Of a DNA stretch of 64,000 bases, positions 5,294 to 54,944 are shown one piece after another. Within the stretch, counting starts at the first letter, position 1. The number at the start of each line of letters is the position of its first letter. A program made the translations under genes and the position numbers. Below the pieces are notes generated by a model. It was not told the origin of the DNA. It searched no databases and saw only the letters and a list, made by a program, of their open reading frames with translations. The stretch comes from Yuukianura sp. NJ FZ-2021 (Eukaryota), in the NCBI GenBank assembly GCA_046563655.1, contig CM102289.1, positions 4,712,001 to 4,776,000 on the forward strand, written 5' to 3'.

Positions 5294-6518
5294 TTTGCTT
5301 GATATTCTCTTTACCTGACTGAACTGACAGTGATGATGAGGATGACTGACTTAGGAAAACTGGTCGCCGGTGAGTGACAACCAAGAAAAAGATTACCTAG
5401 CAACGGATGAGATCTTGTGGACGAGATCAAGATTTGACAAGAGACAAGGATATTTAGGGAGGCGAAGAAGAAGAAAGTCACTTTATAAACAGAAAGAAGA
5501 ACCCGAAGTGGGGAATGGATGAGGATGGACGGAGACGGAGGGTTACACAACACAGGGGAGAGAAATTTAACTGGAATGACTATTCGTCAGAAATGGTTTA
5601 TGCTCGGCTTCACTTTACTGTCTACGATTTTAAGAATTTCTACTATAGAATAACCAATTCGGCTCGTACTGAGCAGCAGAAGTAAAGTGCGACTAAAATA
5701 AATTAACTAAAGTAAATTTAAACTACAGGATTCAAAGATAGTATAAGCGAATTAGTTTTTACGGTTTTTAACCGCAAAACTTCTCTCCAGATTCCAGACT
5801 CTATTTGGAGCTTTTAATTTTGTGAATATGTAATAAAAGTCGTCGTGTAAATTACAGGCTAATGTAATCACAATAAGGCTTTAAGACAAAAAGAGTTATT
5901 AATGATTGGTTTAGCGTAACCTAAAATCGATGAATACTAGGAATAATTTTAAGGTATGCTGACATTTAATTATATTTTGAACGTTTGAGACCTAAGTACT
6001 ATCAGTACGATACAAGGGTTTTGAACGTTGACATTTTTTGAATTCGAAGTTCGAAGTCTTGCGATTTGCGATTCTTTCATTGTACTATATATTCCTGGAT
6101 TCAATGAATTAGTCAAACGTCTCTCTCAATACACTGGGTTGGGTGCGAGGGTTTTTTTCTTATGTAATTTTAAGACAGTGTTTTATAGGATGAACTGCGA
6201 GTAAAATGATGGAGGAAAAAAAAACTAACCTTCTGTGACTTCTAAAAATTGTAAAAAGAAGTGGGTATACTCCAGCGGGGAGGCCGTGCCGGGCTGGATA
6301 TGTAGTTTTCACTGGTGAGCTTATCGGTATCATTATCTTAGCCTCTTAAAATTCACTGTCACATGTGTCGTTCGTAAATCTCATTTAACTTATTTCTCAG
6401 GTTAGAGTACGTCCACTGGTCCACTCACTCCTGGTCCACTTAACGATAGCGAAGGTCAAGGATTTGCAAACTTCTAAGTACGAATTTAGCGTGAGACAAT
6501 TTCGCGTTAGATCCAACG

Positions 6519-8223
6519 ATGTTGATGAGCACCGGAAGAGCGTTGACGTCCGTTATTTGCAAACAGAGTCCTAGCGCTGCATTGTTAGGGTGCGTCAGGT
6601 TTGCCAGCAATCAACGCGCAGGGTTTGATTACAAGGATGCACTCTGTCTCGAGTCGCAGTTGACAGAGGAAGAGATCCTCATCCGAGATACAAGCGCTGA
6701 CTTCTGTAGAGAAAAACTGATGCCTCGGATCTTGCAGGCGAATCGAAATGAAGTGTTCGACAAAGAAATTTTGAAGGAGATGGGCAGCCTTGGGTTACTC
6801 GGATCAACAATCAAGGGGTTCGTTTCGCTACGCCAAATCCGTCTGATGCTTGTCCTTGATCTCACAATTTCATCTCACCGTTTGCTGTACTATTTTTTAG
6901 GTACGGCTGCCCGGGCGTGTCTTCCGTCGCTTATGGTCTCATCGCCAGGGAAGTGGAAAGAGTGGACAGTGCCTATCGCTCTGGTGAGTGACAGTTTTGT
7001 TCAATTCATCGTGGTTGGCACACTAAAGTGGTTCATGTTGCTGTTTATTTGTGATTTGTGTAGCCCTGAGTGTTCAATCCAGCTTAGTCATGTGGCCCAT
7101 TTACGCATACGGAAGTGAGGAACAGAAGCAGCGCTTTCTTCCTAAACTGGCCAAGGGTGAATTGGTTGGCTGCTTCGGGCTCACAGAACCCAACCATGGG
7201 TCAGATCCAGGAGGTTTAGAAACCAAGGCAACTTATAAGGACGGCGTATACGTTCTGAACGGTGAGCCTAAATCGTGGGCTTCATTGTATGAAGTTTTGA
7301 ATTGAGGAAGTTAATTGAAGTGGCGTGTTTTAGGATCTAAGACATGGATTACGAATGCTCCTGTCGCGGACGTGTTTGTGGTGTGGGCAAAAGAACAAGG
7401 AAAGTTACGTGGCTTTCTGCTGGAGAAGGGAATGAAGGGACTCTCCGCCCCCAAAATCCAGGGCAAGTTTTCACTCAGAGCCAGCGACACGGGAATGATA
7501 CTCATGGACAACGTCCAGGTTCCAAAGGAAAATGTATTGCCAGAAGCCAGTGGCTATTCTGGTCCATTCGGCTGCCTCAACAACGCTAGGTAGGTCTTCG
7601 AGGTAAGGGATGTTCCAGTACCGATGAAGAAGAATACGGAGGATAAATAGTTTAGGTGGTTAATCTGTTGATTATAAACACAAATTCACTCTCCGATTTT
7701 TTGTGTGCAGGTTTGGGATTGCGTGGGGAGCCTTAGGTGCTGCTGAATTTTGTATGAATACTGCCAGAGATTACACATGTGATCGACCGCAGTTTGGGCG
7801 CCCGCTTGCCGCTAACCAACTTATTCAGAAGAAGCTGGCTGACATGTGTACGGAGATTACGTTGGGTCTTCACGCATGCCTGGCTCTTGGGAGACTGAAG
7901 GACCAAGGAAAGGCTGCTCCAGAGATGATTTCCTTGCTCAAGCGGAATTCTTGCGGAAAAAGCTTGGATATCGGTGAGTTTGAGTTTTTTAGATTGAGTT
8001 CAATGTACTCAATGTACCCTAATGAATTTAACATTATTTATGATTTTTGTGCTGTCAAGCTCGTGCTGCGAGAGATATGTTGGGGGGAAATGGAATCTGT
8101 GACGAGTACCATGTCATTCGCCATGTTATGAATCTGGAGGCAGTCAACACGTACGAAGGGACGCATGACATTCATGCCCTCATTCTGGGCAAGGCAATTA
8201 CAGGCATACCCGCATTTTCATGA
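6519..8223 (+). CDS. GCDH: Glutaryl-CoA dehydrogenase, mitochondrial (multi-exon)
   Basis: Transit-peptide-like N-terminus; motifs [88 protein letters not shown] at 8221-8223. Confidence 0.96.
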
Positions 8224-8985: not shown

Positions 8986-10407
8986 ATGGACAAGAGGGGC
9001 GAGGTCACACCACCGCCCAGGCTCTGTCACCTCATCAAGGTAATTCCCATCCTCTTCATTCCACTTCATTTACTTACTCAATTTTTTGTCGCCTATCTTA
9101 CAGTGGCCTGACTTTGATGGATTCGGATTCAACTTGCATGGAGAGAAGACCAAGGCAGGCCAGTACATTGGGAAAGTGGATGCAGACTCTCCTGCCGCAG
9201 CTGGTAAACTGAACTTATTTTACATTTACGCATGAACGTCATGCGTAAATGTCCAGCAGTCGATTTCTAACTGAATCTTTGTTTCACCTTCTCAGCGGGC
9301 CTCAAAGCCAAAGATCGGATTATAGAAGTCAACGGAACGAACATTGCAAATGAAAACCATAAGCAAGTTGTTGAGAGGATCAAGGCAGTTCCACACGAAA
9401 CGAAGTTGCTCGTTGTAGATGAAGACGCTGAAGAGTACTACAGAACTCGAAACATTATTGTGACTGGTGATATGCCTAATGTCATCTACATCAAGACACC
9501 TTCACGCTCTCCACCGCAAGTAGTTACCAGTTCAGAAAGTATTGGAGCAGAGGGAATCAAGAAAATGGACGGCGACAGTGAGGAGGAAGGACTGTCAGAC
9601 TCGGGTTCTCTAGACTCTTCGTCATTACCCGTAAGTAGAAATAAGCGTTGTTTCAGCGAAAGTTACGAAAACTTTTAGATTTGATAAGTCTAGTCATTGC
9701 CACATATTGCCGTATTAGTCAACAAAACTGAATAATTAGTTACGCCGGAGAGTTTACACATTGAGCTTATAATTCAAGTACGCTACGGTCTTGGAAGTTG
9801 ATTTGAGTAATAAGCTCAATGTGAAAAAAACTTCCTTCTTTTAGTATTCAGTGGTTGAGTGTGGCAATGAGTAGGTTATGAAGGCTAGTGGTTTGTGCTG
9901 CCACTTTTGTTGTTTATTGCCAACAGGAGCGGCATTCTTTATTGGTTGGTATGATGATATGAGATGGTTTAGTTGGGTTTCCAGCTCAGATGCGATGGGA
10001 ACCGTCACAAGGTCACACTCTTTTGTTATGCAGAAGAAACAGATCCCAATTGACAGAACCTTCAGTTGATTGAGATCGAGGGAATTGAACGTGTATAATA
10101 ACGTGGGAAATTGTTTCTTTTTCTTTTTTTACAGAGCAAGTCGAATTCGCTGAAGAAGAAGGGGGCCAATGGCTTCCTCGAGAGTGGTGAAGATGGGGGT
10201 AGCTGGGGGTCGAGTCCAGTGGCCACCCCCTCCCCCACCCCGCTCAACTTTAACCCCAGCTCGAACTCCAAGGGATCCACTTCTTCCCTGGACTTGAACA
10301 TGACGGCACAGGAGATGAGGGCCAAGTTGGCAGCAAGGAAGAAAGTGGACCCCAAGAACTCCAAGATGGACCTCAAGAAGAAGTACGACATCATACAGAC
10401 TCTGTGA
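8986..10407 (+). CDS. Sip1: NHERF/EBP50-family single-PDZ scaffold (Sip1-like), multi-exon
   Basis: PRLCHLIKWPDFDGFGFNLHGEK...DRIIEVNG...HKQVVERIKA PDZ domain; C-terminal ERM-binding tail MTAQEMRAKL...MDLKKKYDIIQTL. Confidence 0.9.
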
Positions 10408-11395: not shown

Positions 11396-12546
11396 ATGGC
11401 CACAAAAGCAGAGTGCGAATCAAAGGGTAAGTAAAAACATAGCATAAGAAAATGTAATAGAAAAAAATACTAATGTAGTGAAACGTTTACTTTAAAATGG
11501 TTTCATTTAGTGTAATTGGTCTCCAGGGACGTTCAGTGTCAAATGTGGGCTTGCTCAGATGCTGAAGGGTGGGATCATCATGGACGTGACGACGGTGGAG
11601 GAGGCTAAGATAGCAGAGAAGGCTGGCGCATGTGCCGTCATGGCGCTGGAGAGAGTTCCGGCAGATATCCGGCGGGACGGTGGCGTGGCTCGGATGAGCG
11701 ATCCCAAGGTAAAGTCGCTTGCAATTTGCAATTGTTTGTTTCTGAGTGTTTCATAGCTAATAAACGGTTGTTTTTTATCTAGATGATCAAGGAAATCAAG
11801 AGTGCCGTGACGATCCCTGTAATGGCCAAAGTTAGGATCGGTCACTTCGTGGAGGCACAGATTCTCGAGGCCCTGGAAGTGGACTATATCGACGAATCCG
11901 AAGTTCTCACTCCCGCCGATACGGAACACCACATCAACAAGCACAAGTTCTGCGTGCCCTTTGTATGTGGAGCAAGAAGTCTTGGCGAAGCCCTGAGACG
12001 CATTGAGGAAGGAGCCGCCATGATCCGAACAAAAGGAGAAGCTGGAACAGGTAAATGTCGAAACACAATTAAATTAATTGGTTTTCGTTGGAGACATTTA
12101 CCGATATTGTTTGGATAGGAAATGTGGTTCATGCTGTGGAGCATGCGCGAGCAATCAACCGTGAAATCAAATTGGCGTCCGTGATGGATGAGGATGAGTT
12201 GTTCTCGCATGCGAAAAAGTTGGGCGTGTCGTTGGAACTGTTGAAGACGACTGCGAAACTGGGCCGACTGCCCGTGGTTACGTTTAGTGCTGGTGGTTTG
12301 GCAACTCCGGCAGACGTAGGTCTCCTCATGCAACTTGGAGTGGACGGTGTTTTTGTTGGAAGCGGAATTTTCAAATCCACGAATCCAGAGAAGAGGGCTC
12401 GTGCCATGGTGTTGGCGACAACTCATTTTAACGAGCCAGCAACACTGGCTGAAGTTAGTGAGGATTTGGGTGGCGCTATGGTGGGTATTGGGTCAAACGA
12501 TACTTTTGAAAACTGGGCAAGCAGAGAAAGCGGCCATAGCAAATAA
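11396..12546 (+). CDS. PDX1: Pyridoxal 5'-phosphate synthase subunit PDX1/PdxS/SNZ; exons 11396-11426, 11527-11708, 11783-12050, 12119-12546 (302 aa)
   Basis: [104 protein letters not shown]; three in-phase GT-AG introns. Confidence 0.96.
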
Positions 12547-12728
12547 AAGCAGAACACTTTTCCACCTCTGACCTCAGTTAACAGTTTGACCTTGTGACAG
12601 ACAGCGTTTCACATATTTCGATCTGCGTTTTATTTAAAAAAAGACAGATTTTTTTTAAAAAGGTTAAAAAACGAGTTTTTCAATATAGTCGTACCAACAG
12701 CAAAATAGGCATGGTTGCCATTTGCCGT

Positions 12729-15700
12729 CTACTTATTGCCACTACTGCCGTAGTAGGTGGGGCAGACGCCCTTGGCTTGTTGCTTGTCGTTGATCTCGGG
12801 AAAGATGGAACTGAGGTTGAAGTTGGAGATTGAGTTGGAGGTGGGTCCAGAGAGGTAGGGTTGGTGGGGCTGGTGGTGCGTGGGGTTAAAGTAATTCTGA
12901 TGCTGAGAGTGGTACTCGTTGGGACCGTGATGACCCCTCTGATTGTAAGACTCTACCAATCCATGTGACTGAGGAAGAGGCGGAGCATATGGTTTGGCGT
13001 GAGTCTGGACTTGCCCATAAGCACTTGGCTTCTGCACATTGGAGTCAAAATGGACGTCACCCCAAGGATTTCGATGTTGTCTGACGATGGCATCTCCCTC
13101 AGTCGTATTCTGCACTCCCACCAACTTGCTCACGGAAAATTCGTTTCCTTTTTTATACGCAGAATCCGTCATCCAGTTGACAGGACGCTGCTGCTGAGCT
13201 TGAGATTGAGTAGTACCCTGCGCCTGCGCAGTAAACGCCTTCTTTTGTTCTATATTTCGCTTCGTAGGAGCCGATTGGTTTACTCTTTGAGGATGTGGAT
13301 TGGCTGAATGCTGCCCAGTATTAGTAGTGGAAGTAGTTGCGGAACGGGAAGAGGGTTGAGGATGAATGTACGCGTGGTTACCGTCGTGATATGACCGACT
13401 TTGACCTGCATTGCAAAATCCTTCATTTTGGAACTGAAGCTGACTACTCTGGATATGCTGCGGTTGGAGACAATGAGGTGGGGCCAAGTAGAACGGTGGT
13501 GTTGGTGCATCATTTACTAATGGTGGGGCATAGAAAGGCCTTCCAAGACGTTCGTAAGACGTTTTGTCTGCAACAGTGGTTGAGCTTGGTGTGTTGTGAA
13601 AGTGGGCTGAATAAAAGTGCGACGATGTTGGTGGCGCCGCGATTTGAGAATTTGGAACTGAATGTTGCGGACGTGAGACAATGGTTGGATTGCTTGCCAA
13701 ATTGCTTGGATTGAGACAGTTTGCACTTTCTGTTCTTTGTTCGGAACTGTTTGTTCTAAATTGAGCATTGGGCTGCTGGAAGTATCTGAAGGGAGATGGA
13801 TCGGCGTCTCTCGGAGTTGACTGTGCCTTTGGTCCAGAAAATTTTGAACTTCCCGTTCTCGTTTCCGATTGGCTGGCACTCACAACTGAAGTTTTATTGC
13901 GTGTTTTCGTATGGTGGCTAACTGGCGGGGGATATTTCTTTTGGTGATTCTGGTTATCATACCGTTGGTTTTGAGGAAACGTATTTTCTAGCCCGGTTTC
14001 AACATATTTGTGTCTAAAGGTGTAAGTTAAGTCTTGAGTTGGACCTGATACTCCGCATTGAGAAGTGGTTGGATGCGTAAAGTGGTTTTGAAGGTATGAA
14101 GAAGATGGAATGGCCTCGTTTGCTTTGCGTTGAGTGTAGCTCGGAAAAAATAAGTCGTAAGATTGAGTAGGATTTTGAAAAACTCCTGAATTCCCAGCAG
14201 AATTTGTTTGTGGAGCCTCCGGGCTGGAGTAGGTAAACGGTTGCCCTTGACTTGCATTTGTGGCTGGAATGGTCGGAAGAGCCGTAGGTTGCATAGCGAC
14301 ACTGTTCTTGCCACTGGATCTTTCATTGGTCGAAATCGGTTCCAGGCCAAACGCATCTTCCGAATGAAGAAATGCAGAGAGTGACAAGATTTCCGAACTT
14401 CGTTTTTCTCTGCTTAGAGGCTGCAGGGGTGCTAAAATTGTGTCCAGAGAGTCCCCATCTCCCAATGATCGCTTGCTTTTTCCCGTTGTATCACATGAAT
14501 CGAAGTTCAGAACGGGCGTTGCATGTTGCTGATGACTTCCAGGCAGCATAGAATCAATGAAAAAGGAAGATCGACAGGACTTTTGCTGTGAAGTTGCTTG
14601 ACTATGCGGATTCGAATCTTGTGTCTGCCCAGACTGTTCCATTTGAACCGGAACTGCCACGAGACTCTCGCGTGGCAGTAACGGAAACATCGACAGGAAC
14701 ATTTGTGTTGGTGAAATAGGAGATTTAGGTGAATGACCAACGACATCTCCCCAGTCTGTGCCTAGTTCCATTAACTCTGCTTCCGTTTCCTCTGATCCCT
14801 CCTCCATCAATCCAATACTCCTTGCAATGCACTCGCTCATCTTTTCCGTATCCAGTGAAACCGGATGATTGACCTCCGGAGTCGATATTGGTGCTAAAGG
14901 AGTCGCACGACGACTTTCGTTCAAGTCCATGTCGAAGTCTACAACACGAGTGACTGGGACAGATGACATGGGAGTAGGACTTTGTTCATGAGTAGAAGAA
15001 GAAGGAATGGTACAGACTGTATTGTCCACCTCCACATTGAGTAGCGATTTATCCGCACTGCTGATCAATGAGGAAGATGTAAATGTAGACGTACTAAGTT
15101 CTGGCTGTGATACTTGTGAATTAGCGTTTTCTGGAAGTTCGTCAGTCTTTGTATTCCCATTTTGAGATGAATCCGTAGCATTGGCTATAATACGGTCAGT
15201 ATTGGAAATCATGGTTTCACTGGAAGAGGTTCCTGCCGCAACAACATTATCTTCGATGTCTTTATTTTCGCATAAGTGATTCATTTCGGCGATGTCCTTA
15301 GGACCTTCCTGAGGAATGGATTCCAATCTGGAGTCATTTTGTATTTGAATAGAAGTAGGATTCGGGGTCGGTTCCTCTGATTTTGCTAGTGACTCCTCAA
15401 CACATGAGATCAAATTCTCCTTAATTGTGATAACACTCTCCGTTGCAACCGATCCTGAGGAAAATTCTTTATCATTGAGTGGGAAATCAGCATTCACATT
15501 GTCATGAACCGCTTGATCAATCGATTGAGGATCAGACTCTAGATGCGTGTTATCTTTAGGCTCAGCGGAAGTGTCGGTAAAACTAGTTGTACTAGTTTGA
15601 GTACCAAATTCAACTTTGTCATTTCCACTTTTTAGTCGCTTCGGTTTCAAACTTGGCTTTCGTATTTTCCGTGGCACTCTTTTCGTGATGGACTTGATGG

Positions 15701-16641
15701 GAATCTTGGGAAATGACGACGGTCCTACTATGACTTTTGACAGAATCGGTTGACACTGTGAGAGGGGCGCGGCCAAGTTAACTCGAGTAATTAGCTGAGG
15801 TTGAATTTGAATTGGTGTGAAAATGAAGGTTGGTTGCTGCTGAACTTGGTGAACCGGAGGAGACGTTGACTGATTCGCTGGGTTGCTCGTCACGTTTGCT
15901 GTTTCGGTTGACGAACGAGCAGGTTGGTCAATCGGTGGAGACTGCTTCGGAGGAATTTCCATACCTTCAATGCGGTCGACGATAGTAATTTTCGTCTTAC
16001 CCAGTCTATCTACAACAATTTAACCCATACCTAAAATTTTGCTTCTTGATAATAATTTTGCAAACAGTGAAGAGTCACTCACCATTTTGAAGTGTCGCAG
16101 GTCCATTTTTGGAAACTTCACAAATTGGTGTAGTTTTGGATATTTGGATGCGTTGGATATCCCGAACTCCCAACTTGTTCGACCACTTGAATCGTTTCTT
16201 TCCAAGTGATTTAATTGAAGGTCCATTTGGAATGGTTATTTTCGCTTTGACTAATAGCGCCGTCAACTGCTTCACACGCAAAATCAACTTGTTCACCTCG
16301 TCTTGTAGATGCTTCACTTTTTTAACTACAATTTACAAACATTGCATTTTTCTTAAACATTCTTTGAGTCAGAATAGAAAGCCAGATTTGTTTTCAATAA
16401 TACTCCTTGATTTTTAATTACCCATTTCCGATGGTTGATTATGATCTGCAGCGAGCCTGGAGTTTGATAATCTCAGCTCCTTGATAAACTGTGTGGCATT
16501 TTCCAGGATTTCAATGCGAGCGGGTATCTTGGCAGGATCGTAGTTTGGGAGAAGTTCAACAAGAAGCTTGAAAGCATCAGCTAATCTATCCCTTCGTCTC
16601 CGCTCCCATTCCCTGCACTTGGAATTGTCCCGCACCTTCAT
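12729..16641 (-). CDS. Large bHLH transcription factor with long low-complexity C-terminus (USF3-like architecture); exons ~16641-16422, 16325-16083, 16009-12729
   Basis: N-terminal bHLH (WERRRRDRLADAFKLLVELLP...ARIEILENATQFIKEL), a coiled segment, then more than 1000 aa of S/T/P/Q-rich sequence ending NFNLSSIFPEI. Confidence 0.8.
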
Positions 16642-16843
16642 TAGTTACTGGAAACATGAAAAAATATAAATACATATACGAGATTTCCTTGTCCTGATAA
16701 AAGACTGACATTTGATTCGACTGAACAAGGCCTAACCTACGACTGCGCAAGATCAACACGTGTGCATTCAGTTTTGCCTTTTGCAGTAATTTGAATCGTG
16801 TCAGTAATTTTCCAATTCTGCTGCTTTCGTTTATCACCGCCCA

Positions 16844-18100: not shown

Positions 18101-18390
18101 GATCATTTTCTTCTCACTCACTTCTCACTTGAGCATCCAATTGATCATTTTCGACTACTGGAAAATGGTGGGAAGTCACTGTGGAATAAACTACCTCTTC
18201 GCTTGTAGTTTCAGTACATACTACACGTTACCTCAAAGTGAAAGAATGCAATGATTTTCCAGCTGTTTCAGTCTTATGTAAGAAGCAACGTCATGCTATG
18301 TAATGAGTGAAATATTGCAAATTTCTAACACAATATAGACGTCTTGTTTTTTTTTAGTTGCAGACTGCGACTAAAAGGATCTAGACTCTA

Positions 18391-20039
18391 GATCTTCTAT
18401 TCTGCATATACTGTTAACCGCCGTAGTGTGAATGTTGGTGAATAACTTGAACGATTTGATTCGATTTGAATATAATCGTGGACCACATAACATACAACCA
18501 GCTGTACACGCAGGATTGATCCTTAGGTTCGGTGAACGAGCAAGCGACAGCTACAAAACTTCGCTTGACTAAAAACTCTTGGTATGCAAGACTTGAACAC
18601 CGCAAGCGTCTAGATCTTCTACTCTGCATATGCTCTTAACCGCCGTAGTGTGAATGTTGATGAATAACTTATACCAATTGATTCGATTTCAATAGAGCCA
18701 TGGACCGCATAACAGACAACCACTTTTTAACGCAGGATTGGTCGCAAGGTTCGATGAACGAGCAAACACCCGCTGCATAAGTTCGTTTGCCTAAAAACAT
18801 TTTGAATGCAAAAGTTGTACACCAAATTTCATGCAAGCGTCTGGATCTTCTATTCTACATATACTGTTAACAGCCGCAGTGTGAATGTTGGTGAATAACT
18901 TGAACCATTTGATTCGATTTGAACAGAATCTAGGACCCCATAACAAACAACCACCTTTGAACGCAGGACTGGTCCATAGGTTCCGTGAACAAGGAAACGA
19001 CTGCTCCATAACATCGTTTGCCTAAAAACATTTTGAATGCAAAAGTTGTACACCAAATTTCATGCAAGCGTCTGGATCTTCTATTCTACATATACTGTTA
19101 ACAGCCGCAGTGTGAATGTTGGTGAATAACTTGAACCATTTGATTCGATTTGAACAGAATCTAGGACCCCATAACAAACAACCACCTTTGAACGCAGGAC
19201 TGGTCCATAGGTTCCGTGAACAAGGAAACGACTGCTCCATAACATCGTTTGCCTAAAAACATTTTGAATGCAAAAGTTGTACACCAAATTTCATGCAAGC
19301 GTCTGGATCTTCTATTCTACATATACTGTTAACAGCCGCAGTGTGAATGTTGGTGAATAACTTGAACCATTTGATTCGATTTGAACAGAATCTAGGACCC
19401 CATAACAAACAACCACCTTTGAACGCAGGATTGGTCCATAGGTTCCGTGAACAAGGAAACGACTGCTCCATAACATCGTTTGCCTAAAAACATTTTGAAT
19501 GCAAAAGTTGTACACCAAATTTCATGCAAGCGTCTGGATCTTCTATTCTACATATACTGTTAACAGCCGCAGTGTGAATGTTGGTGAATAACTTTGATTC
19601 GATTTGAACAGAATCAAGGACCCCATGACAAACAACCACCTTTGAACGCAGGATTGGTCCATAGGTTCCTGAACAAGGAAACGACTGCTCCATAACATCG
19701 TTTGCCTAAAAACATTTTGAATGCAAAAGTTGTACACCAAATTTCATGCAAGCGTCTGGATCTTCTATTCCACATATACTGTTAACAGCCGCAGTGTGAA
19801 TGTTGGTGAATAACTTGAGCCACTTGATTCGATTTGAACAGAATCAAGGACCCCATAACAAACAACCACCTTTGAACGCAGGATTGGTCCATAGGTTCCT
19901 GAACAAGGAAACGACTGCTCCATAACATCGTTTGCCTAAAAACATTTTGAATGCAAAAGTTGTACACCAAATTTCATGCAAGCGTCTGGATCTTCTATTC
20001 CACATATACTGTTAACAGCCGCAGTGTGAACGTTGGTGA
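18391..20039. repeat. Tandem satellite, ~231-bp unit, 7 full copies plus a partial copy
   Basis: GATCTTCTA anchor at 18391, 18613, 18844, 19075, 19306, 19537, 19759 and 19989. Confidence 0.97.
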
Positions 20040-22946: not shown

Positions 22947-23620
22947 GTAATAAGGTCGAAATAGTTTGATCGCAAGTAATAAGGTCGCAGGTAATAAGGT
23001 CGCAAGTAATAAGGTCGCAAAGTGAAAAGATCGCAAGTGAAATGATCGCAATGTAAAAAGATCGCAATATGAAAAGGTCGAAAAGTAAATTGGTCGGAAG
23101 TAAAATGGTCGCAACAGCAAATGGTCGAAAAATAAAAAGATCGAAAAACTTGATAATTTCTGAAAACTTTTTATCGTTGTTATATCTAAATAACCTAACG
23201 CGCGCCTTCGGGCGGTGAAATAGGGCACAATTTATGTTATCCAATCATTACACAATAGAAATTCTGATGCTGTATGTCAAACTCACATTGCTAATGCCAA
23301 AATCAATTAACCGATCTTATATAAAAGGAGGTATTGCCGTCAAAAACGGGTTCCAGAGTCGGAATCTACGACAAAAGATCAATATAAAAAAATTAATTAC
23401 TAAAAAATATCATCTCTTTTTTTCGACCTTTTTATGTTTCGACCATTTGTTGTTGCGACCATTTTACTTCCGACCAATTTACTTTTCGACCTTTTCATAT
23501 TGCGATCTTTTTACATTGCGATCATTTCCCTTGCGATCTTTTCACTTTGCGACCTTATTACTTGCGACCTTATTACCTGCGACCTTATTACTTGCGACCA
23601 AATTATTTCGACCAAATTAC
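22947..23620. mobile_element. Foldback-like element with ~200-bp inverted arms built from ~15-bp GGTCG/GATCG units
   Basis: 22947-23149 is the near-exact reverse complement of ~23418-23620; the ORF track shows the same peptide (CDLITCDLITCDLITCD) on opposite strands. Confidence 0.85.
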
Positions 23621-23639
23621 CTGCTACGCCTCGAATATA

Positions 23640-36016: not shown

Positions 36017-38077
36017 TTAACCTCGTGATTTGAATTGAGAAGGTCGGCGTAATGCGTAGAGGTCATGTTTCGGTGGGGTCAAAATGAACCCTGACCTGGG
36101 ACCAATGTCAGGTTTCGGTTGATTCGGGTCGAGAGTAAATGAAAACTGTTGAAGAATTCCGACGAAGAACAGGAAGTATTCTTGGAGAGCCAAATTTTGA
36201 GCTGGACAAGTTCTTCTGCCAACGAAAAACGGAATGAGACGCTCGTCCCTGCGAAACTTTCCGAATGAATCGATAAATCGTTCGGGTCGAAAGGTGTGCG
36301 GGTCTCCCCAGTACTGTGGATCATGATGGATATGGTATAGGTTATTAAGGAAAAACGTTCCTTTTGGGAATGAGTAACCGCCAAATTCAAAATCTTCGAT
36401 TGGAGCATGGAAAAGTCCGAACGGAGTAATGGTTGACTTGCGCATCACTTCGGCCATGGTAGCCTCCACATACGGCAGCCTACAACACAAACAACAAATA
36501 TCATCCACAGTAATCTAACTTTGCAAGGTCAAGGTTGATTGAGCTTATTACTCTAACATTTACGGTCAATCAAAACACCTTGCTCAAGGTCATCCTTGAT
36601 ACTAATTAATATAAATATGAAAAAGAAATTCGTTGACCTCTGTCGATCCTCTGCACAGGGCATGTGATTTTCTAAAACAGTGTCAATTTCACAGTGAATT
36701 TTCTTTTGGACTTCAGGCCACATCGCTAGGAAAAGAAACGTCCAACCCAATGTTGAGCTCAACGTGTCTGATCCGGCAAAGAACATGTCCAGGACAGTGT
36801 AGTGAACGTTTTTCACTGAAAAAAATTCCAATGCGTCAAAATTTGACTTCAGTTGTTTACGACGCATACCCAGGAAGGCATAATCTATCAAGCTTACGTC
36901 CTCTTTGTTGAAAAAACTGAGACTGTGGGTTTGTTGTGGAGTAGACTTTGCCGAGACCACAATCAACAAAGTCTCTATGATTAGTTGGATCGTAAGTGGC
37001 GATGTGCTTGTCCATAATTTCTCGCACAAGATCTTCTGGAGCTTCAAAGTATTCCATTCCTTGTGCATAACCTGAAAAACCAGGCAGTAGTTTTGCCAAC
37101 CAGGGGAGGAAAGACGCAATTCCAACAAGATTTTGCGACGCCAAACCTCTGTTTACGGAAAAAATCAAAACAAAACTCTTGTTTAAAAAAATATTACGAA
37201 GTTCAAAAGAGTTTTCTACGGACTCTGAAAGGATGTTAGCAACTTTTCGTTTGAGCGGGTCCTCAATGTTGTACTTCTCTCCAGTGAATATTTCCCAGAG
37301 GGCGTTGATCACTGCGATTTCGAGGACCGGCTTTAAATCAACAGGTTTTCCCACGTTCTTCCTGTTGTACAAAAAGCGAAAACTTAGAAGCGTACATGAC
37401 TGAAGAACATTTCAGTTATTATTTTAAATTGTTACCCAATGAATTGCGTGCACTGAGTCACTTGTTCAAGGATGGATGCCTCCATGCTCTTTGTACCGAA
37501 ACCAAACTCCCTCAGACATCGCATCATGAACCGTCGTACTTCTGACCAGTCATTGCCCTCCAGTAAACCGATTCCTAAAAAAAATGGTCAAATAGGCAAA
37601 TAGTGGTTCTATTTGAAGGACGTACCGTAGTATCCCCTCTGTTGAAAAACTTCCAATTGGGCTCGTCCTGTCATCACGTCCAATTTGTAAAGTTCCTTTA
37701 TGGTTTCAAAGTCATTCACAAAAACAACACTGCAAAGCGACGAAAAACAGAATGAATTTTTCAGATTACATATAAATATGAAATGAAGCTTACGGATATT
37801 TCCCTAGCTGAAGTGTAAAAATATTTCCAAACTTTGGAATCAGGCTGGTAACTGTAAGACAAGGAACTTTTCCTAGGAACGGTAAGTATCCAAATATTGG
37901 CAATCCAATTGGCCCTGAAATCAACACAAAACAGAAAATTAGAAAGTGACGCTTTTATTTTTAATTTATATGAGCAGTACCTGGCGGAAGATTTTTGTTG
38001 TTTCGTTTTTGACACCTTTGGAAAAAGCATCTTACTAAAGTTAGTGTTACTAAGAACAAAACCAGTTCGACGTACAT
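36017..38077 (-). CDS. Cytochrome P450, CYP2-clan-like, copy A (apparently intact)
   Basis: Anchor MYVELVLFLV, LPPGPIGLPIFG, I-helix DMFFAGSDT, EVMR (ExxR), FRPERF, heme motif PFFVGRRTCPA. Confidence 0.92.
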
Positions 38078-38377
38078 ATTGACACTGCGAAACTAAATAG
38101 TTGGAAGTTTGCCAAATCTTTATCCAAAGTTGTCTTTTCAAGTTCGTATTTAATTCTGCTGGAAAAAATATACTTTCAATTTCCTTTTATGCTCGTCATT
38201 CTGCACTTGCAAATGCAGCAGTAATTACTGAAATCAGATAAGTTCTTATTCCATAGTAGAGCGGATACGCTTGACGAAGACGATAATCACTTTTCACAAC
38301 ATGCACTTATGATCTCCCGTCCATAATTTGAATACGTCAGTCTTCATGGATCGACAAGTTCTGCCAACTCTTGAAAA

Positions 38378-39932
38378 CTAGGGAACGAAGCTGCGGTAAA
38401 GAACCATTTTCTCATCAACTTCGATTGGCATGTCGGTATCACCAGCAGGCACAAACATCACAGAGCCTCTGCTTAAGGCAACGTTATTCGCCCCAAAACG
38501 TCCTTTCCCCTCCAGCACAAGGCAGACGGAGCAACTTCGAGAAGTTGGCAAATGGAAAGATTCACTTTTCTGAAAAACAGAAACAATTCAATCTTAATCA
38601 TGGCCACTTAAACTTTAATCAAAGCGTACTTAAATAGAAAGCTTACTTCAAACAACTCCACTGCAAATTCATCAACTGGAGGTTCATAAAGAAATCTCCC
38701 TGGTTCAATTTGTTTAGCCTTCATGGTCCATTCCTTTCCAGTATCAAATGTCAACATGGTCGTCAGCACATCTACGTCCTTGAACTTTGGAGTTAGCCCT
38801 GCTCTGACGACGTTATCCGAATTGGCCATACATTCCATGCAGTCTGCAAATGAAAAAAAAGAATTCGGATTTAATCAAAAATGAAAAACCGAGTGAAGTT
38901 TTTGCAATGAATTCTTACCACCATCCAAGTAAGCATGAGGTTCATTTGCAGGAAGAAAAATCGCTTCCCCTGGACGAAGCAGAATGTGCTGAAGGAAGAA
39001 GACACCGAAGACTCCTACATCGCCGGGAAACTGTTGATGGAGACGGGAGATAAGTTCGTGTTCTGGTACAGAGTCGCCACGAGCTACTAAGGTTGTAACT
39101 TTGGCAGCAATTTCATCAGCATCTGTCTTCATCAATCGTGTGAATACCTCCTGCAGATCCTTCTTCGATTCCAGTGCAGCACCCGCCACTAAGGCTCCCA
39201 GTTCCGGAACATCTAAAGATGAATAAAGGTAACATTAACATTACAAATTGAAACTCCTGAATTCCTGACCTCATTAAATGATTGATTTTACCACGGATTA
39301 GTTGCTTGATTTCCTCCAAAGTACGAAATCCACAAAGTACTTCGAACGGTGAAACTGCAATGGCCATTTCAGGTTTATGATTGTCATCTGGATAGTTGGC
39401 AGGGTCTAAATAAAAACAGATAGCTTTAATAAATTACACACTAAATATAAATAAGTATCATGACGAGTTATAATTTGTAACAGATTTGTAGTGCGAAGCA
39501 AACACAACAGATCGAGTCAGTTCGAGTAAGGTTTGCAACAAAGCCTTTCTCAAATCTCAAGTGTGCTGAAAAATTTCCTCATAATAGACATGGCCTACCT
39601 CGTTCATGTAAAATCCGAGCAAGACTTTTGTCTGGATGGGCCTGGATGCTCAGTGCCTTTTGAACACTGAGTACTTTGAACAGAAACGGTAAGCTTGGTC
39701 CGAACTTGGACAAAGTTTGACTTCCTAAAACATCGGGATTGGCGCTTATGTAATCGTTGAGAGGTTGTCCATTTGGTAAGTAGCAAGGACCAGACGGATG
39801 AGCACCCATCCATAGTTCTGCATACGGTGTACTGTTACATGTCGGTTCTATTTTCGAAGTCAGTTGAGCAACTAGTGAATCCAAGCCCACTCTACCCCAT
39901 GGATAATTCTTGATTGATGGTCTAAGCAACAT
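38378..39932 (-). CDS. MPI: Mannose-6-phosphate isomerase (type I PMI), copy A (apparently intact)
   Basis: [88 protein letters not shown]. Confidence 0.95.
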
Positions 39933-40344
39933 CTTGTCTCCTTTACGAATTCGTTTAATTAATTATTGATTTAGGTTTGGTTAGGTTACTGTTCCTATGC
40001 AACTAATTTTCCATGTGTCTGTGTCAGTGTCACTGTCACTGATATCGTTTGTTTTGTCCCGGTATGGATGGGATGGACTATTCCTCCGATTCCTACGTAA
40101 AGTTTTGTAAGCAAGACAATTCCGAGGATTATTCACCTTTCTACAACGCAATTTATACCTAGGTACTACACGGCGGTCGTAATCCCCGGACATGTTTGAC
40201 GTTTTCGCTCAGGATTGTCCCGTATCGGACACTTTTCGACATTGTTTTTATGAAATGTCTGAATTCTGAAATATCAGACGAAAACACACAACGCGGTTTG
40301 CACATGAGCCACTGAGCCAGGCGCAGTATTTACTAACGCCAGTG

Positions 40345-46468: not shown

Positions 46469-48424
46469 AAATTGTAAATGAAAACTGTTGTAGAATTCCG
46501 ACGAAGAACAGGAAGTATTCTTGGAGAGCCAAATTTTGAGCGGGACAAGTTCTTCTGCCAATGAAAAACGGAATGAGATGCTCGTCCCTCCGAAACTTCC
46601 CGAATGGATCGATAAATCGTTCAGGTCGAAAGGTGTGTGGGTCTCCCCAGTACTGCGGATCATGATGGATATGGTATAAGTTATTAAGGAAAAACGTTCC
46701 TTTTGGAAATGAGTAACCGCCAAATTCAAAATCTTCGATTGGAGCATGGAAAAGTCCGAACGGAGTAATGGTTGACTTGCGCATCACTTCGGCCATGGTA
46801 GCCTCCACATACGGCAGCCTACAACACAAACAACAAATATCATCCACAGTGACCTAACTTTGCAAGGTCAAGGTTGCTTGATTGAACTTACTACTCTAAC
46901 ATTTACGGTCAATCAAAACACCTTGCTCAAGGTCATCCTTGACACTAATTAATATAAATATGAAAAAGAAATTAGTTGACCTCTGTCGATCCTCTGCACA
47001 GGGCATGTGATTTTGTAAAACAGTGTCAATTTCACAGTGAATTTTCTTTTGGACTTCAGGCCACATCGCTAGGAAAAGAAATGTCCAACCCAATGTTGAG
47101 CTTAACGTGTCTGATCCAGCAAAGAACATGTCCAGGACAGTGTAGTGAACGTTTTTCACTGAAAAAAAATTCCAATGCGTCAAAATTTGACTTCAGGAGG
47201 TTGCGTGCGACGACGCCAACGCAGGAAGGCAAAATTAACCTTACGCCCTCTTTGTTGAAAAAACTGAGACTGTGGGTTTGTCGTGGAGTAGACTTTCCCG
47301 AGACCGCAATCAACAAAGTCTCTATGATTAGTTGGATCGTAAGTGGCGATATGCTTGTCCATAATTTCTCGCACAAGATCTTCTGGAGCTTCAAAGTATT
47401 CCATTCCCTGTGCATAACCTGAAAAACCAGGCAGCAGTTTTGCCAACCAGGGGAGGAAAGACGCAATTCCGACAAGATTTTGTGAAGCTAAACCTCTGTT
47501 TACAGAAGAAATCAAAACAAAACTCTTGTTTAAAAATACGACGAAATTCAAAAGATATGTTTACGGACTCTGAAAGGATGTGAGCAACTTTTCGCTTGAG
47601 CGGGTCCTCAATGTTGTACTTCTCTCCAGTGAATATTTCCCAGAGGGCATTGATCACCGCGATTTCAAGGGCCGGCTTCAAATCAACAGGTTTTCCCACG
47701 TTCTTCCTGTTGTACAAAAAGCGAACTTAGAAGCGTGCATGACTGAAGAAGAACATTTCAGTTATTATTTTAAATTGTTACCCAATGAATTGCGTGCACT
47801 GAGTCACTTGTTCAAGGATGGATGCCTCCATGCTCTTTGTACCGAAACCAAACTCCCTCAGACATCGCATCATAAACCGTCGTACTTCTGACCAGTCATT
47901 GCCCTCCAGTAAACCGATTCCTAAAAAAAGATGATCAAATAGGCAAATAGTGCTTCAATTTGAAGGACGTACCGTAGTATCCCCTCTGTTCAAAAACTTC
48001 CAATTGGGCTCGTCCTGTCATCACGTCCAATTTGTAAAGTTCCTTTATAGGTTCAAAGTCATTCACAAAAACAACACTGCAAAGCGACAAAAAACAGAAT
48101 GAATTTTTCAGATTACATATAAATATGAAATGCAGCTTACGGATATTTCCCTAGCTGAAGTGTAAAAATATTTCCAAACTTTGGAATCAGGCTGGTAACT
48201 GTAAGACAAGGAACTTTTCCTAGGAACGGTAAGTATCCAAATATTGGCAATCCAATTGGCCCTGAAATCAACACAAAACAGAAAATTAGAAAGTGACGCT
48301 TTTATTTTTAATTTATATGAGCAGTACCTGGCGGAAGATTTTTGTTGTTTCGTTTTTGACACCTTTGGAAAAAGCATCTTACTAAAGTTAGTGTTACTAA
48401 GAACAAAACCAGTTCGACGTACAT
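46464..48424 (-). pseudogene. Cytochrome P450 copy B, 3'-truncated
   Basis: Near-identical to copy A, but homology stops at 46474; reads ...QQFSFTIY* instead of ...QQFSFTLDPNQPKPDIGPRSGFILTPPKH..., losing about 38 C-terminal residues. Confidence 0.8.
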
Positions 48425-48724
48425 ATTGACACTGCGAAACTAAATAGTTGGAAGTTTGCCAAATCTTTATCCAAAGTTGTCTTTTCAAGTTCGTATTTAA
48501 TTCTGCTGGAAAAAATATACTTTCAATTTCCTTTTATGCTCGTCATTCTGCACTTGCAAATGCAGCAGTAATTACTGAAATCAGATAAGTTCTTATTCCA
48601 TAGTAGAGCGGATACGCTTGACGAAGACGATAATCACTTTTCACAACATGCACTTATGATCTCCCGTCCATAATCTGAATCCGTCAGTCTTCATGGATCG
48701 ACAAGTTCTGCCAACTCTTGAAAA

Positions 48725-50281
48725 CTAGGGAACGAAGCTGCGGTAAAGAACCATTTTCTCGTCAACTTCGATTGGCATGTCGGTATCACCAGCAGGCACA
48801 AACATCACAGAGCCTCTGCTTAAGGCAACGTTATCCGCCCCAAAACGTCCTTTCCCCTCCAGCACAAGGCAGACCGAGCAACTTCGAGCAGTTGGCAAAT
48901 GGAAAGATTCAGTTTTCTGAAAAACAGAAACAATTCAATCTTAATCATCGCCACTAAATTAAACTTTAATCAGAGTTTACTTAAATAGAAAGCTTACTTC
49001 AAACAACTCCACAGCAAATTCATCAACTGGAGGTTCATAAAGAAATCTCCCTGGTTCAATTTGTTTAGCCTTCATGGTCCATTCCTTCCCAGTATCAAAT
49101 GTCAACATGGTCGTCAGCACATCTACGTCCTTGAACTTTGGGGTTAGCCCTGCTCTGACGACGTTATCCGAATTGGCCATACATTCCATGCAGTCTGCAA
49201 ATGAAAAAAAGAATTCGGATAATTCACTTAACCAAAAATGAAAAACCGAGTGAAGTTTTTGCAATGAATTCTTACCACCATCCAAGTAAGCATGAGGTTC
49301 ATTTGCAGGAAGAAAAATCGCTTCCCCTGGACGAAGCAGAATGTGTTGAAGGAAGAAAACACTGAAGACTCCTACATCGCCGGGAAACTGTTGATGGAGA
49401 CGGGAGATAAGTTCGTGTTCTGGTACAGAGTCGCCACGGGCTACTCAGGTTGTAACTTTGGCAGCAATTTCATCAGCATCTGTCTTCATCAATCGTGTAA
49501 ATACCTCCTGCAGATCCTTCTTCGATTCCAGTGCAGCACCTGCCACTAAGGCTCCCAGTTCCGGAACATCTAAAGATGAATAAAGGTAATATTAACATTA
49601 CATATTGAAACTCCTGCGATTGAATGATTGATTTTACCACGGATGAGTTGCTTTATCTCCTCCAAACTACGGAATCCGCAAAGTACTTCGAACGGTGACA
49701 CTGCAATGGCCATTTCAGGTTTATGATTGTCATCTGGATAGTTGGCAGGGTCTAAATAAAACCAGACAGCTTTAGGAATTGACAAACCTAATATAAATAG
49801 TATCATAAGTTATAATTTGTAATAGATTTGTAGTACGAAACTTAGTTTAAAACACGACAGATCGAGTCAGTTCGAGTAAGGTTTACAATTACAACAATAC
49901 CTTTCTTAAGTGTGCTTAAAAATTTTCCCATAATAGACATGGCCTACCTCGTTCATGTAAAATCCGAGCAAGACTTTTGTCTGGATGGGCCTGGATGCTC
50001 AGTGCCTTTTGCACACTGAGTACTTTGAACAGAAACGGTAAGCTTGGTCCGAACTTGGACAAAGTTCGACTTCCTAAAACATCGGGTTTGGCGCTTATGT
50101 AATCGTTGAGAGGTTGTCCATTTGGTAAGTAGCAAGGACCAGATGGATGAGCACCCATCCATAGTTCCGCGTACGGTGTACTGTTACATGTCGGTTCTAT
50201 TTTCGAAGTCAGTTGAGCAACTAGTGAATCCAAGCCCACTCTACCCCATGGATAATTCTTGATTGATGGTCTAAGCAACAT
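48725..50281 (-). pseudogene. MPI: Mannose-6-phosphate isomerase copy B with in-frame nonsense codon
   Basis: Copy A has AAA GTT ACA ACC TTA GTA (KVTTLV); copy B has AAA GTT ACA ACC TGA GTA (TCA at 49445-49447 on the + strand). Confidence 0.85.
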
Positions 50282-50747
50282 CTTGTCTCCTTTAGGAATT
50301 CGTTTAATTAATTACTGATTTAGATTTCGTTAGGTTACTGTTCCTATGCAACTAGTAATTGTCCATGTGTCTGTGTCAGTGTCACTCTTCTGTCACTGAT
50401 ATTGTTTGTTTTGTCCCGACATGGATGGGTTGGCCTATTCCTCCGATACCTACGTAAAGTTTTGTAAGCAAGACAATTCCGAGGATTATTCACCTACCAC
50501 ACCGCGATTTATACCTACAAGGCGGTCCTAATTCGCGGATATGTTTGACGTTTTCGCTTAGGATTGTCCCGTTTCGGACACTTTTCGACATTGTTTTTCT
50601 GAAATGTCTGAAATCTGAAATATCAAACGAAAACACACAACGCGGTTTGCACATGAGCCAGGCGCAGTATTTACTAACGCCAGTGATTTTATGTCTTTTA
50701 AAATGTTGCAAATAAGGAAAAAAAAACATAATTTTTTGAAGGGTTTG

Positions 50748-53969: not shown

Positions 53970-54944
53970 TTAGCTTTGCTGAGCTTCCTTCAGCTTCCTT
54001 TTGTTCTTTCCTCGTAAAATTGCTTCTTTGAAAAGTTTACAATATAATTCTACAGAGCAGAGGCTGTCGTCATTTCCAGGAACCGGATACGTAATTAAGT
54101 TAGGGTTGCAGTTGCTGTCAACGATACCTACAGTGGGAATTAGCATCTTAGCAGAATCTTTGATAGCCCCATGTGGGCTCATCACCGTCGTCAATGTGTT
54201 CGTGAGGATGACAAGATCAGGGAGCCTCGTTATTCCTTCAAAAGTTTTCTGTAAAAAAAAAAGTACAGGAGTAATTAAAAAATGGATCGCTTTTCAGTCC
54301 TTATGATTAAAAGCGGCTTACGATTGAATTTGTAAACACTTTTGTCATCCACTCTCTCGTATGCACATACTCTCCACATTCAATAGCAGTTTTCTCCACC
54401 AAGTTCATTGTTTGTGGAGATCGCGTTACAAACAAAATGATTCCCTTGCGATATGCGATGTGAGCAGCAAAATTGAGCGCTTGTCGAAGGTAGTGTGCAG
54501 TGATGTCGAGGTCAAAAATTGTGGACTCAAATCTGGTGCCAAATATGAACGGCCTCATGTTTGGATCCATGGAACCCAGTTTATGACCCATGTGAACTCT
54601 GGCTTCAAAGAGGTCCTTCACAGTGAATAAACTATAAACTTGAAAGTAGTCTGGACTCTGCAAACTCTCGTCAGCGGCAATTACGTCAGAGACTGAAATC
54701 AGTATTAAAAACAATTTCAAATCGATGATTTCGAAATTTCTGATGATTTGAAAAAATTCATTGCCTTACCTGGTGGTATAACACTTGCTTTGGGGAGACG
54801 TCTTTGAAGCAACGGAGACTGGACATCTGGAACTGGTCGGGGAGAGTAGCAACGTAACAAATTGTACTGCCTTTGAACAGGATTCTGTATTCGAATAATT
54901 GCAGACCCGGTCGCCATCCCCATTAAAGATCTTGTTCCTATCAT
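53970..54944 (-). CDS. mRpS2: Mitochondrial ribosomal protein S2 (3 exons)
   Basis: [65 protein letters not shown]. Confidence 0.95.

Follow-up and report, generated by a model that had tools for sequence, protein, structure and literature searches.

The 64-kb window analysed here, a single gap-free sequence (0 N), carries an intact, intron-bearing gene of the PDX1/PdxS family in a genome that most likely belongs to a springtail or to a close relative of this group. The gene is embedded in the genome, belongs to the SOR_SNZ protein family, keeps its catalytic residues and is placed in an animal-type clade. Judged from its sequence, it is probably a working nuclear gene for the PDX1 synthase subunit of the DXP-independent PLP synthase, with expression and enzyme activity predicted. 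The reading of its past that we favour, again as a probable one, is that of an ancestral animal-type eukaryotic gene kept in this hexapod lineage and lost in most insects and vertebrates, which would make its history a vertical one.

The coding sequence is distributed over four exons (Table 1), and the introns follow codons 10 (phase 1), 71 (phase 0) and 160 (phase 1). Exons 2, 3 and 4 matched the Pfam family SOR_SNZ (PF01680) with 98.7, 180.4 and 47.9 bits, respectively (cut-off 27). The three matches abut in order and together span positions 2-207 of the 207 positions of the profile, which strongly supports the splice model. The spliced protein runs without a gap across every exon junction in all 11 alignments with the homologues chosen, and the codon split at junction 1 encodes a glycine that is aligned with glycine in each of the ten homologues reaching that column. 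The GC content of the introns is 26-32%, compared with 52.6% in the coding sequence and 40.2% in the whole window.

Table 1 Features of the window around and including the PDX1 gene (positions counted from the first nucleotide of the window)
Feature	Position	Strand	Evidence and remarks
Acyl-CoA dehydrogenase (ACAD)	6495-8128	+	Pfam
PDZ-domain exon of the upstream neighbour	9271-9675	+	PF00595, E=2.9e-7
PDX1/PdxS gene, 4 exons	11396-12546	+	CDS 909 nt, 302 aa; start ATG at 11396, stop TAA at 12544-12546
PDX1 exon 1	11396-11426	+	start codon, 10 codons + 1 base; donor agg|GTAAGT
PDX1 intron 1	11427-11526	+	100 nt, phase 1, GT-AG (GTAAGT...CAG), GC 26%
PDX1 exon 2	11527-11708	+	N-terminal helix region, IMDV aspartate; SOR_SNZ E=5.2e-28, profile 2-60
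PDX1 intron 2	11709-11782	+	74 nt, phase 0, GT-AG (GTAAAG...TAG), GC 32%
PDX1 exon 3	11783-12050	+	K87, K155 and LGEALRRI P2 phosphate motif; SOR_SNZ E=5.1e-53, profile 61-149
PDX1 intron 3	12051-12118	+	68 nt, phase 1, GT-AG (GTAAAT...TAG), GC 31%
PDX1 exon 4	12119-12546	+	GGLATPAD and GSGIFKS loops, C-terminal tail, stop TAA; SOR_SNZ E=2e-12, profile 151-207
AATAAA polyadenylation-like hexamer	12542-12547	+	overlaps the PDX1 stop codon; pattern match, putative function
1096-codon open exon	12732-16019	-	open frame; no Pfam match; Ser/Thr/Pro/Gln-rich
HLH exon of the downstream convergent bHLH gene	16417-16644	-	PF00010, E=3.2e-9
Mitochondrial ribosomal protein S2 (MRPS2) gene	53973-54765	-	PF00318; ORF 54310-54765; 42 kb from PDX1

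The genes on both sides are of animal type. The HLH domain of the downstream neighbour surfaced from a scan of 87 further ORFs of the window, and the 1096-codon open exon presumably encodes the C-terminal part of the same bHLH protein, so that the two exons would form one gene. Besides acyl-CoA dehydrogenase, Pfam matches revealed other split eukaryotic genes in the window, namely two for cytochrome P450, two for phosphomannose isomerase (PMI), and those for Med8, MRPS2 and Skp1; scans for Rfam families and for tRNAs gave no matches in it. The GC3 of PDX1 (0.56) is within the range of the neighbouring genes (0.36-0.59). The gene had initially been described, in a sequence-only reading, as a full-length PDX1 of 302 residues with three short GT-AG introns like those of its neighbours, located between a putative NHERF/Sip1 gene and a bHLH gene and hence unlikely to be a microbial contaminant. 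In-silico splicing and the SOR_SNZ coverage bear out the gene model, the size and composition of the introns are indeed shared with the flanking animal genes, and the Pfam matches to PDZ and HLH confirm the position between an upstream and a convergent neighbour. Microbial contamination is likewise disfavoured by the intron-bearing animal genes on either side and by the GC3 value.

Within the window, a segment of ~4.2 kb is duplicated in direct orientation (36135-40344 and 46474-50685; 94.1% identity over 4259 aligned bases). On the minus strand of each copy are the 3' exons of two genes, one for cytochrome P450 and one for phosphomannose isomerase. A 231-bp unit is repeated in tandem (18387-20039; 7.2 copies, 92% matches) upstream of the bHLH gene and gives rise to a ladder of short minus-strand ORFs. 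At 22947-23147 and 23421-23624, a 15-16-nt unit (GTAAAAAGGTCGCAA-like) forms two arrays, which are placed in opposite orientation ~300 bp apart and jointly make up a large imperfect inverted repeat.

The affiliation of the host was read from MRPS2. Among the 21 proteins found with E <= 0.001 in a set of 172 candidates, the best named matches were those of Orchesella dallaii and O. cincta (69% and 68%; 195 and 194 bits), followed by a sawfly with 158 bits. A quick tree of 22 rows recovered a six-row clade with both Orchesella proteins (SH-aLRT 99), in which the window protein was located outside the Orchesella pair. Since MRPS2 groups with these springtails, we most likely deal with a springtail, or with a close relative of springtails, that is not close to Orchesella; the assignment is based on this one gene.

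Similarity searches with PDX1 pointed to animal-type relatives. A protein search with exon 4 scored 8000 candidates. Among the best 120 of these, animal-type matches had 66-85% identity and 177-242 bits, and the best named ones were from sponges (Amphimedon 73%, Dysidea 70%, Suberites SNZERR 69%). Against PDB chains the same exon scored 153 bits with Arabidopsis, 125 with yeast Snz1 and 114-149 with chains named PdxS. A scan of prokaryotes confirmed 407 of 600 stretches as loci, of which the best 80 were kept; the highest identity over exon 4 was 64% (Chloroflexia). A profile search with an alignment (A1) of five clade members added, among named sequences, Caligus (copepod), Owenia and Dimorphilus (annelids), Balamuthia, and the fungi Calcarisporiella and Polychytrium. 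Profile scores of 584-630 bits were found for the five query sequences only, the next being 562 with a smooth fall thereafter. The top profile match, P0142 (760 bits), was rejected as a clade member, being an internally duplicated Clostridia-like sequence. This 475-aa PdxS from an NCBI source has its N-terminal two thirds repeated, probably as an artefact of assembly or annotation, and the duplication explains its first rank in profile searches.

Close relatives, with 79-87% identity, are uninterrupted ORFs on contigs of ~1 kb, which would fit transcribed and spliced genes. A metagenome scan for intron-bearing relatives confirmed 431 of 598 pattern-matching stretches, none of them close (best identity 67%). 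No PDX1 from Orchesella or Folsomia was among the best 120 of either the exon 4 or the clade-profile search, both made against annotated proteins. Since Orchesella proteins are represented in that database, PDX1 looks patchy within springtails, as weak evidence from sequence searches would have it.

For the phylogeny, which the sequence-only reading had proposed, we used 64 hand-picked rows and 309 columns, most of the rows being without an organism name (IQ-TREE, LG+C20 PMSF). The window PDX1 pairs with P0001 (support 99/93) and is a member of a six-row clade (100/99) together with P0003, P0006, P0024 and P0016 from Bradysia odoriphaga. The stem of this clade is fairly long (0.2). With the five nearest sequences, all without an organism name, it makes up a clade of 11 rows (97/90). 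A clade of 38 rows (99/94) contains the window protein, all ten named animal sequences of the tree (three sponges, three annelids, Ciona, two copepods and Bradysia) and Stygamoeba, and leaves outside both fungi, Balamuthia, a row labelled 'soil metagenome PdxS' and all nine prokaryote loci. Stygamoeba P0019, an amoebozoan, thus nests among animal PDX1 sequences, whereas Balamuthia, also amoebozoan, does not; its position suggests either that the transcriptome in question is contaminated or that a transfer of animal-type PDX1 has taken place. Because of this nested amoebozoan, the 'animal clade' of PDX1 is not a clean one.

A FastTree analysis of 134 rows (113 of the best 120 proteins, with at least 270 aa, the window PDX1 and 20 hand-picked prokaryote ORFs) and a quick tree of 77 rows had already set the window PDX1 apart from the sponge rows. 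The assignment of PDX1 to a sponge, as suggested by the named matches of exon 4, was rejected: the trees separate the protein from the sponge rows, and MRPS2 points to springtails.

One incongruence concerns the crustacean sequences. When the window clade and the copepod clade were forced together, the tree was rejected (delta lnL 20.5, AU p=0.0039), i.e., the order of the species tree, with hexapod beside crustacean, was not recovered for PDX1 in the AU test against copepods. Forcing the window clade together with the 17 rows of the bilaterian clade gave a marginal result and was not rejected (delta lnL 7.4, AU p=0.056). Both groups were named after the tree had been seen, and the AU tests are weakened by this choice.

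The sequence-only reading had wavered between a horizontal transfer and rare ancestral retention. Of these, retention fits better, given the animal-type clade with its 99/94 support, and a microbial donor is not supported. We therefore regard the window PDX1 as probably retained from an ancestral animal-type gene. In our reading, retention implies many losses, and the long stem of the six-row clade blurs its placement.

Alternatively, the hexapod lineage of PDX1 (the six-row clade) might have been acquired laterally from another eukaryote, an animal or a protist, with host-type introns gained later, in which case it would not be an orthologue of the crustacean gene. The rejected grouping with copepods speaks for such a transfer, as do the nearest relatives beyond the six-row clade, which are five sequences without an organism name, the presence of Stygamoeba in the large clade, from which it follows that non-animals can carry animal-type PDX1, the missing Orchesella PDX1 among the best 120 matches of both protein searches, and a statement in PMC9460274 that springtails carry transferred genes. 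Nevertheless, we consider it unlikely. The copepod group was picked with the tree at hand, the grouping with bilaterian rows was not rejected, all named members of the 38-row clade but one are animals, and the GC3 of PDX1 does not depart from that of its neighbours; moreover, a change in rate or hidden paralogy can explain a misplacement on so long a stem. A broader proposal, to which we assign a still lower probability, is that some soil hexapods (springtail-like ones and perhaps sciarid flies) make their own B6 by means of a separate PDX1 lineage, not orthologous to the crustacean gene, that goes back to an old eukaryote transfer or to a hidden paralogue. If this were true, the rule by which hexapods obtain their B6 from the diet or from symbionts would no longer hold.

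By homology, PDX1 forms PLP from ribose 5-phosphate, glyceraldehyde 3-phosphate and ammonia via a relay of two lysines, with PDX2 as the usual source of ammonia. The catalytic-type motifs noticed earlier are all present in the window protein (MDV at aa 29, VMAKVRIGH at aa 84 and a third motif of ten residues at aa 152), and both lysines are intact. K87 is part of VMAKVRIGH and corresponds in alignment to the MAK lysine in PDX1.3 chains, and K155, in the ten-residue motif, follows 68 residues later. This spacing equals that of the catalytic lysines K82, which binds ribose 5-phosphate, and K150 of S. aureus Pdx1, as given in a section of PMC11237949; the same source describes LGEAxRRI as the P2 phosphate-site motif of Pdx1, present here as LGEALRRI in exon 3. 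By analogy with characterised PDX1 enzymes, K87 would form a Schiff base with ribose 5-phosphate, ammonia would join the K87-bound intermediate, which would then move to K155, and condensation with glyceraldehyde 3-phosphate at this second lysine would yield PLP. The ammonia would most likely come from a putative partner, the PDX2/SNO glutaminase, encoded elsewhere in the genome.

That PDX2 is not visible within the 64 kb, as first stated from the sequence alone, agrees with our scans. None of the 153 window ORFs scanned matched PF01174; they were drawn from 161 stop-to-stop ORFs of at least 80 aa, the other eight of which overlap PDX1 itself. From 60 prokaryote PdxT ORFs (three of them checked with Pfam, all three SNO) we built an HMM, whose best E-value was 3.9 against six-frame pieces of the window of at least 15 aa; such a prokaryote-built model could miss short eukaryotic exons. 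Eukaryotic PDX1 and PDX2 genes need not be linked. The N-terminal segment ahead of the IMDV motif, which we take to be the PDX2 docking part, is conserved as in the homologues. Both points count against the view that PDX1 was kept here without PDX2, using free ammonia or serving in stress or singlet-oxygen resistance, and so does the sponge Suberites, for which the title of a 2001 paper by Seack et al. (cited in PMC7954711) indicates SNZ as well as SNO. What favours this view is that PDX2 was not found within the 64 kb surrounding PDX1, and that the Pdx1 of S. aureus can form PLP by itself from ammonia, ribose 5-phosphate and glyceraldehyde 3-phosphate, with an efficiency ~2.5-fold below that reached together with Pdx2 and glutamine (a passage of PMC11237949). 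We judge it improbable, and a PDX1 that works with a PDX2 encoded elsewhere is the reading that we retain.

Two further explanations find very little credence with us. Pseudoenzyme copies of PDX1 exist, as the PDX1.2 chains in PDB illustrate, and the window gene could be such a pseudoenzyme or a decaying relic, or else a contaminant or the product of a chimeric contig; its 302 codons are open, however, its splice sites are canonical, it retains 87% identity to its nearest relative, and its introns match those of flanking animal genes in size and composition on one gap-free sequence. The pseudoenzyme reading in particular is unsupported, because the protein retains the two lysines together with the phosphate motifs and because exon 3 is closer to the catalytic PDX1.3 of Arabidopsis (PDB chains aligned without gaps, 153 bits) than to the pseudoenzyme PDX1.2 (124 bits).

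Soil bacteria and fungi commonly carry PDX1, which counts for a transfer from either of them. Cyst nematodes provide a precedent, a horizontally acquired SOR/SNZ gene (PMC4901422, in a passage citing Craig et al. 2008), but the window gene has three spliceosomal introns, and its nearest relatives, by the prokaryote scan and the careful tree alike, are not bacterial: the best prokaryote locus has 64% identity over exon 4, compared with 66-85% for animal-type matches. A microbial transfer is thus unsupported, as the 38-row clade holds the window PDX1 and the named animals, with fungi, prokaryote loci and the soil metagenome row outside, and we regard it as highly improbable.

Insect nutrition is commonly framed around diet or symbionts as suppliers of B vitamins. 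As regards hexapods, the finding contradicts the common textbook statement, and a hexapod with an intact animal-type PDX1 would mean that the B6 pathway was lost piecemeal in arthropods. A springtail-like host with PDX1 would also offer a rearable soil animal in which to test B6 prototrophy. The advance is modest, as PDX1 is known from, or annotated in, sponges and several other animal phyla, and activity and the PDX2 partner are predicted here. Animals are unable to synthesise B6 according to the abstract of a review (PMC7954711), a passage of which nevertheless mentions the DXP-independent pathway in 'some sponges', with reference to the SNZ and SNO of Suberites domuncula (Seack et al. 2001). 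Animal PDX1 is already known: it has been recorded in sponges since 2001 and is annotated in several invertebrate phyla, and the present case adds a hexapod. The initial statement that animal occurrences are scattered was right as to the occurrence; the rarity that it implied was not, since the sources name sponges, annelids, a tunicate, copepods and a fly. Among the open-access papers listed in our literature searches, none deals with PDX1 or PLP synthase in springtails, in insects or in any other arthropod, and none came up under the name SNZERR, a result that falls short of showing that there are none.

Among known systems, the bacterial, yeast and plant enzymes (PdxS, Snz1 and Arabidopsis PDX1.3) have the fold family and the residues of the lysine relay in common with the window PDX1, and over exon 4 their structures are farther from it than are the animal-type sequences (177-242 bits). 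The SNZ/SNO genes of cyst nematodes offer a likeness of another sort, that of an animal with de novo B6 genes where close relatives lack them; these genes are reported as transfers in a passage of PMC4901422, whereas the nearest relatives of the window PDX1 are animal-type eukaryotic and not bacterial.

The nearest named counterpart is the hypothetical protein HA402_013158 (P0016) of Bradysia odoriphaga, the only other named member of the six-row clade, with 75% identity over exon 4. It derives from a fly assembly and might be a true fly gene or that of another soil arthropod; with a path of 0.71 changes per site to the window PDX1, it is not a close copy. Sponge SNZERR/SNZ of Suberites domuncula and the proteins termed 'SNZERR-like' at NCBI (Amphimedon, Dysidea, Ciona and Tigriopus) belong to the same family and to the same animal-type clade, have 71-77% full-length identity to the window PDX1 and are alike in length, catalytic lysines and motifs. 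Unlike these, the window PDX1 comes from a springtail-like hexapod and is a member of a separate six-row subclade, apart from the copepods.
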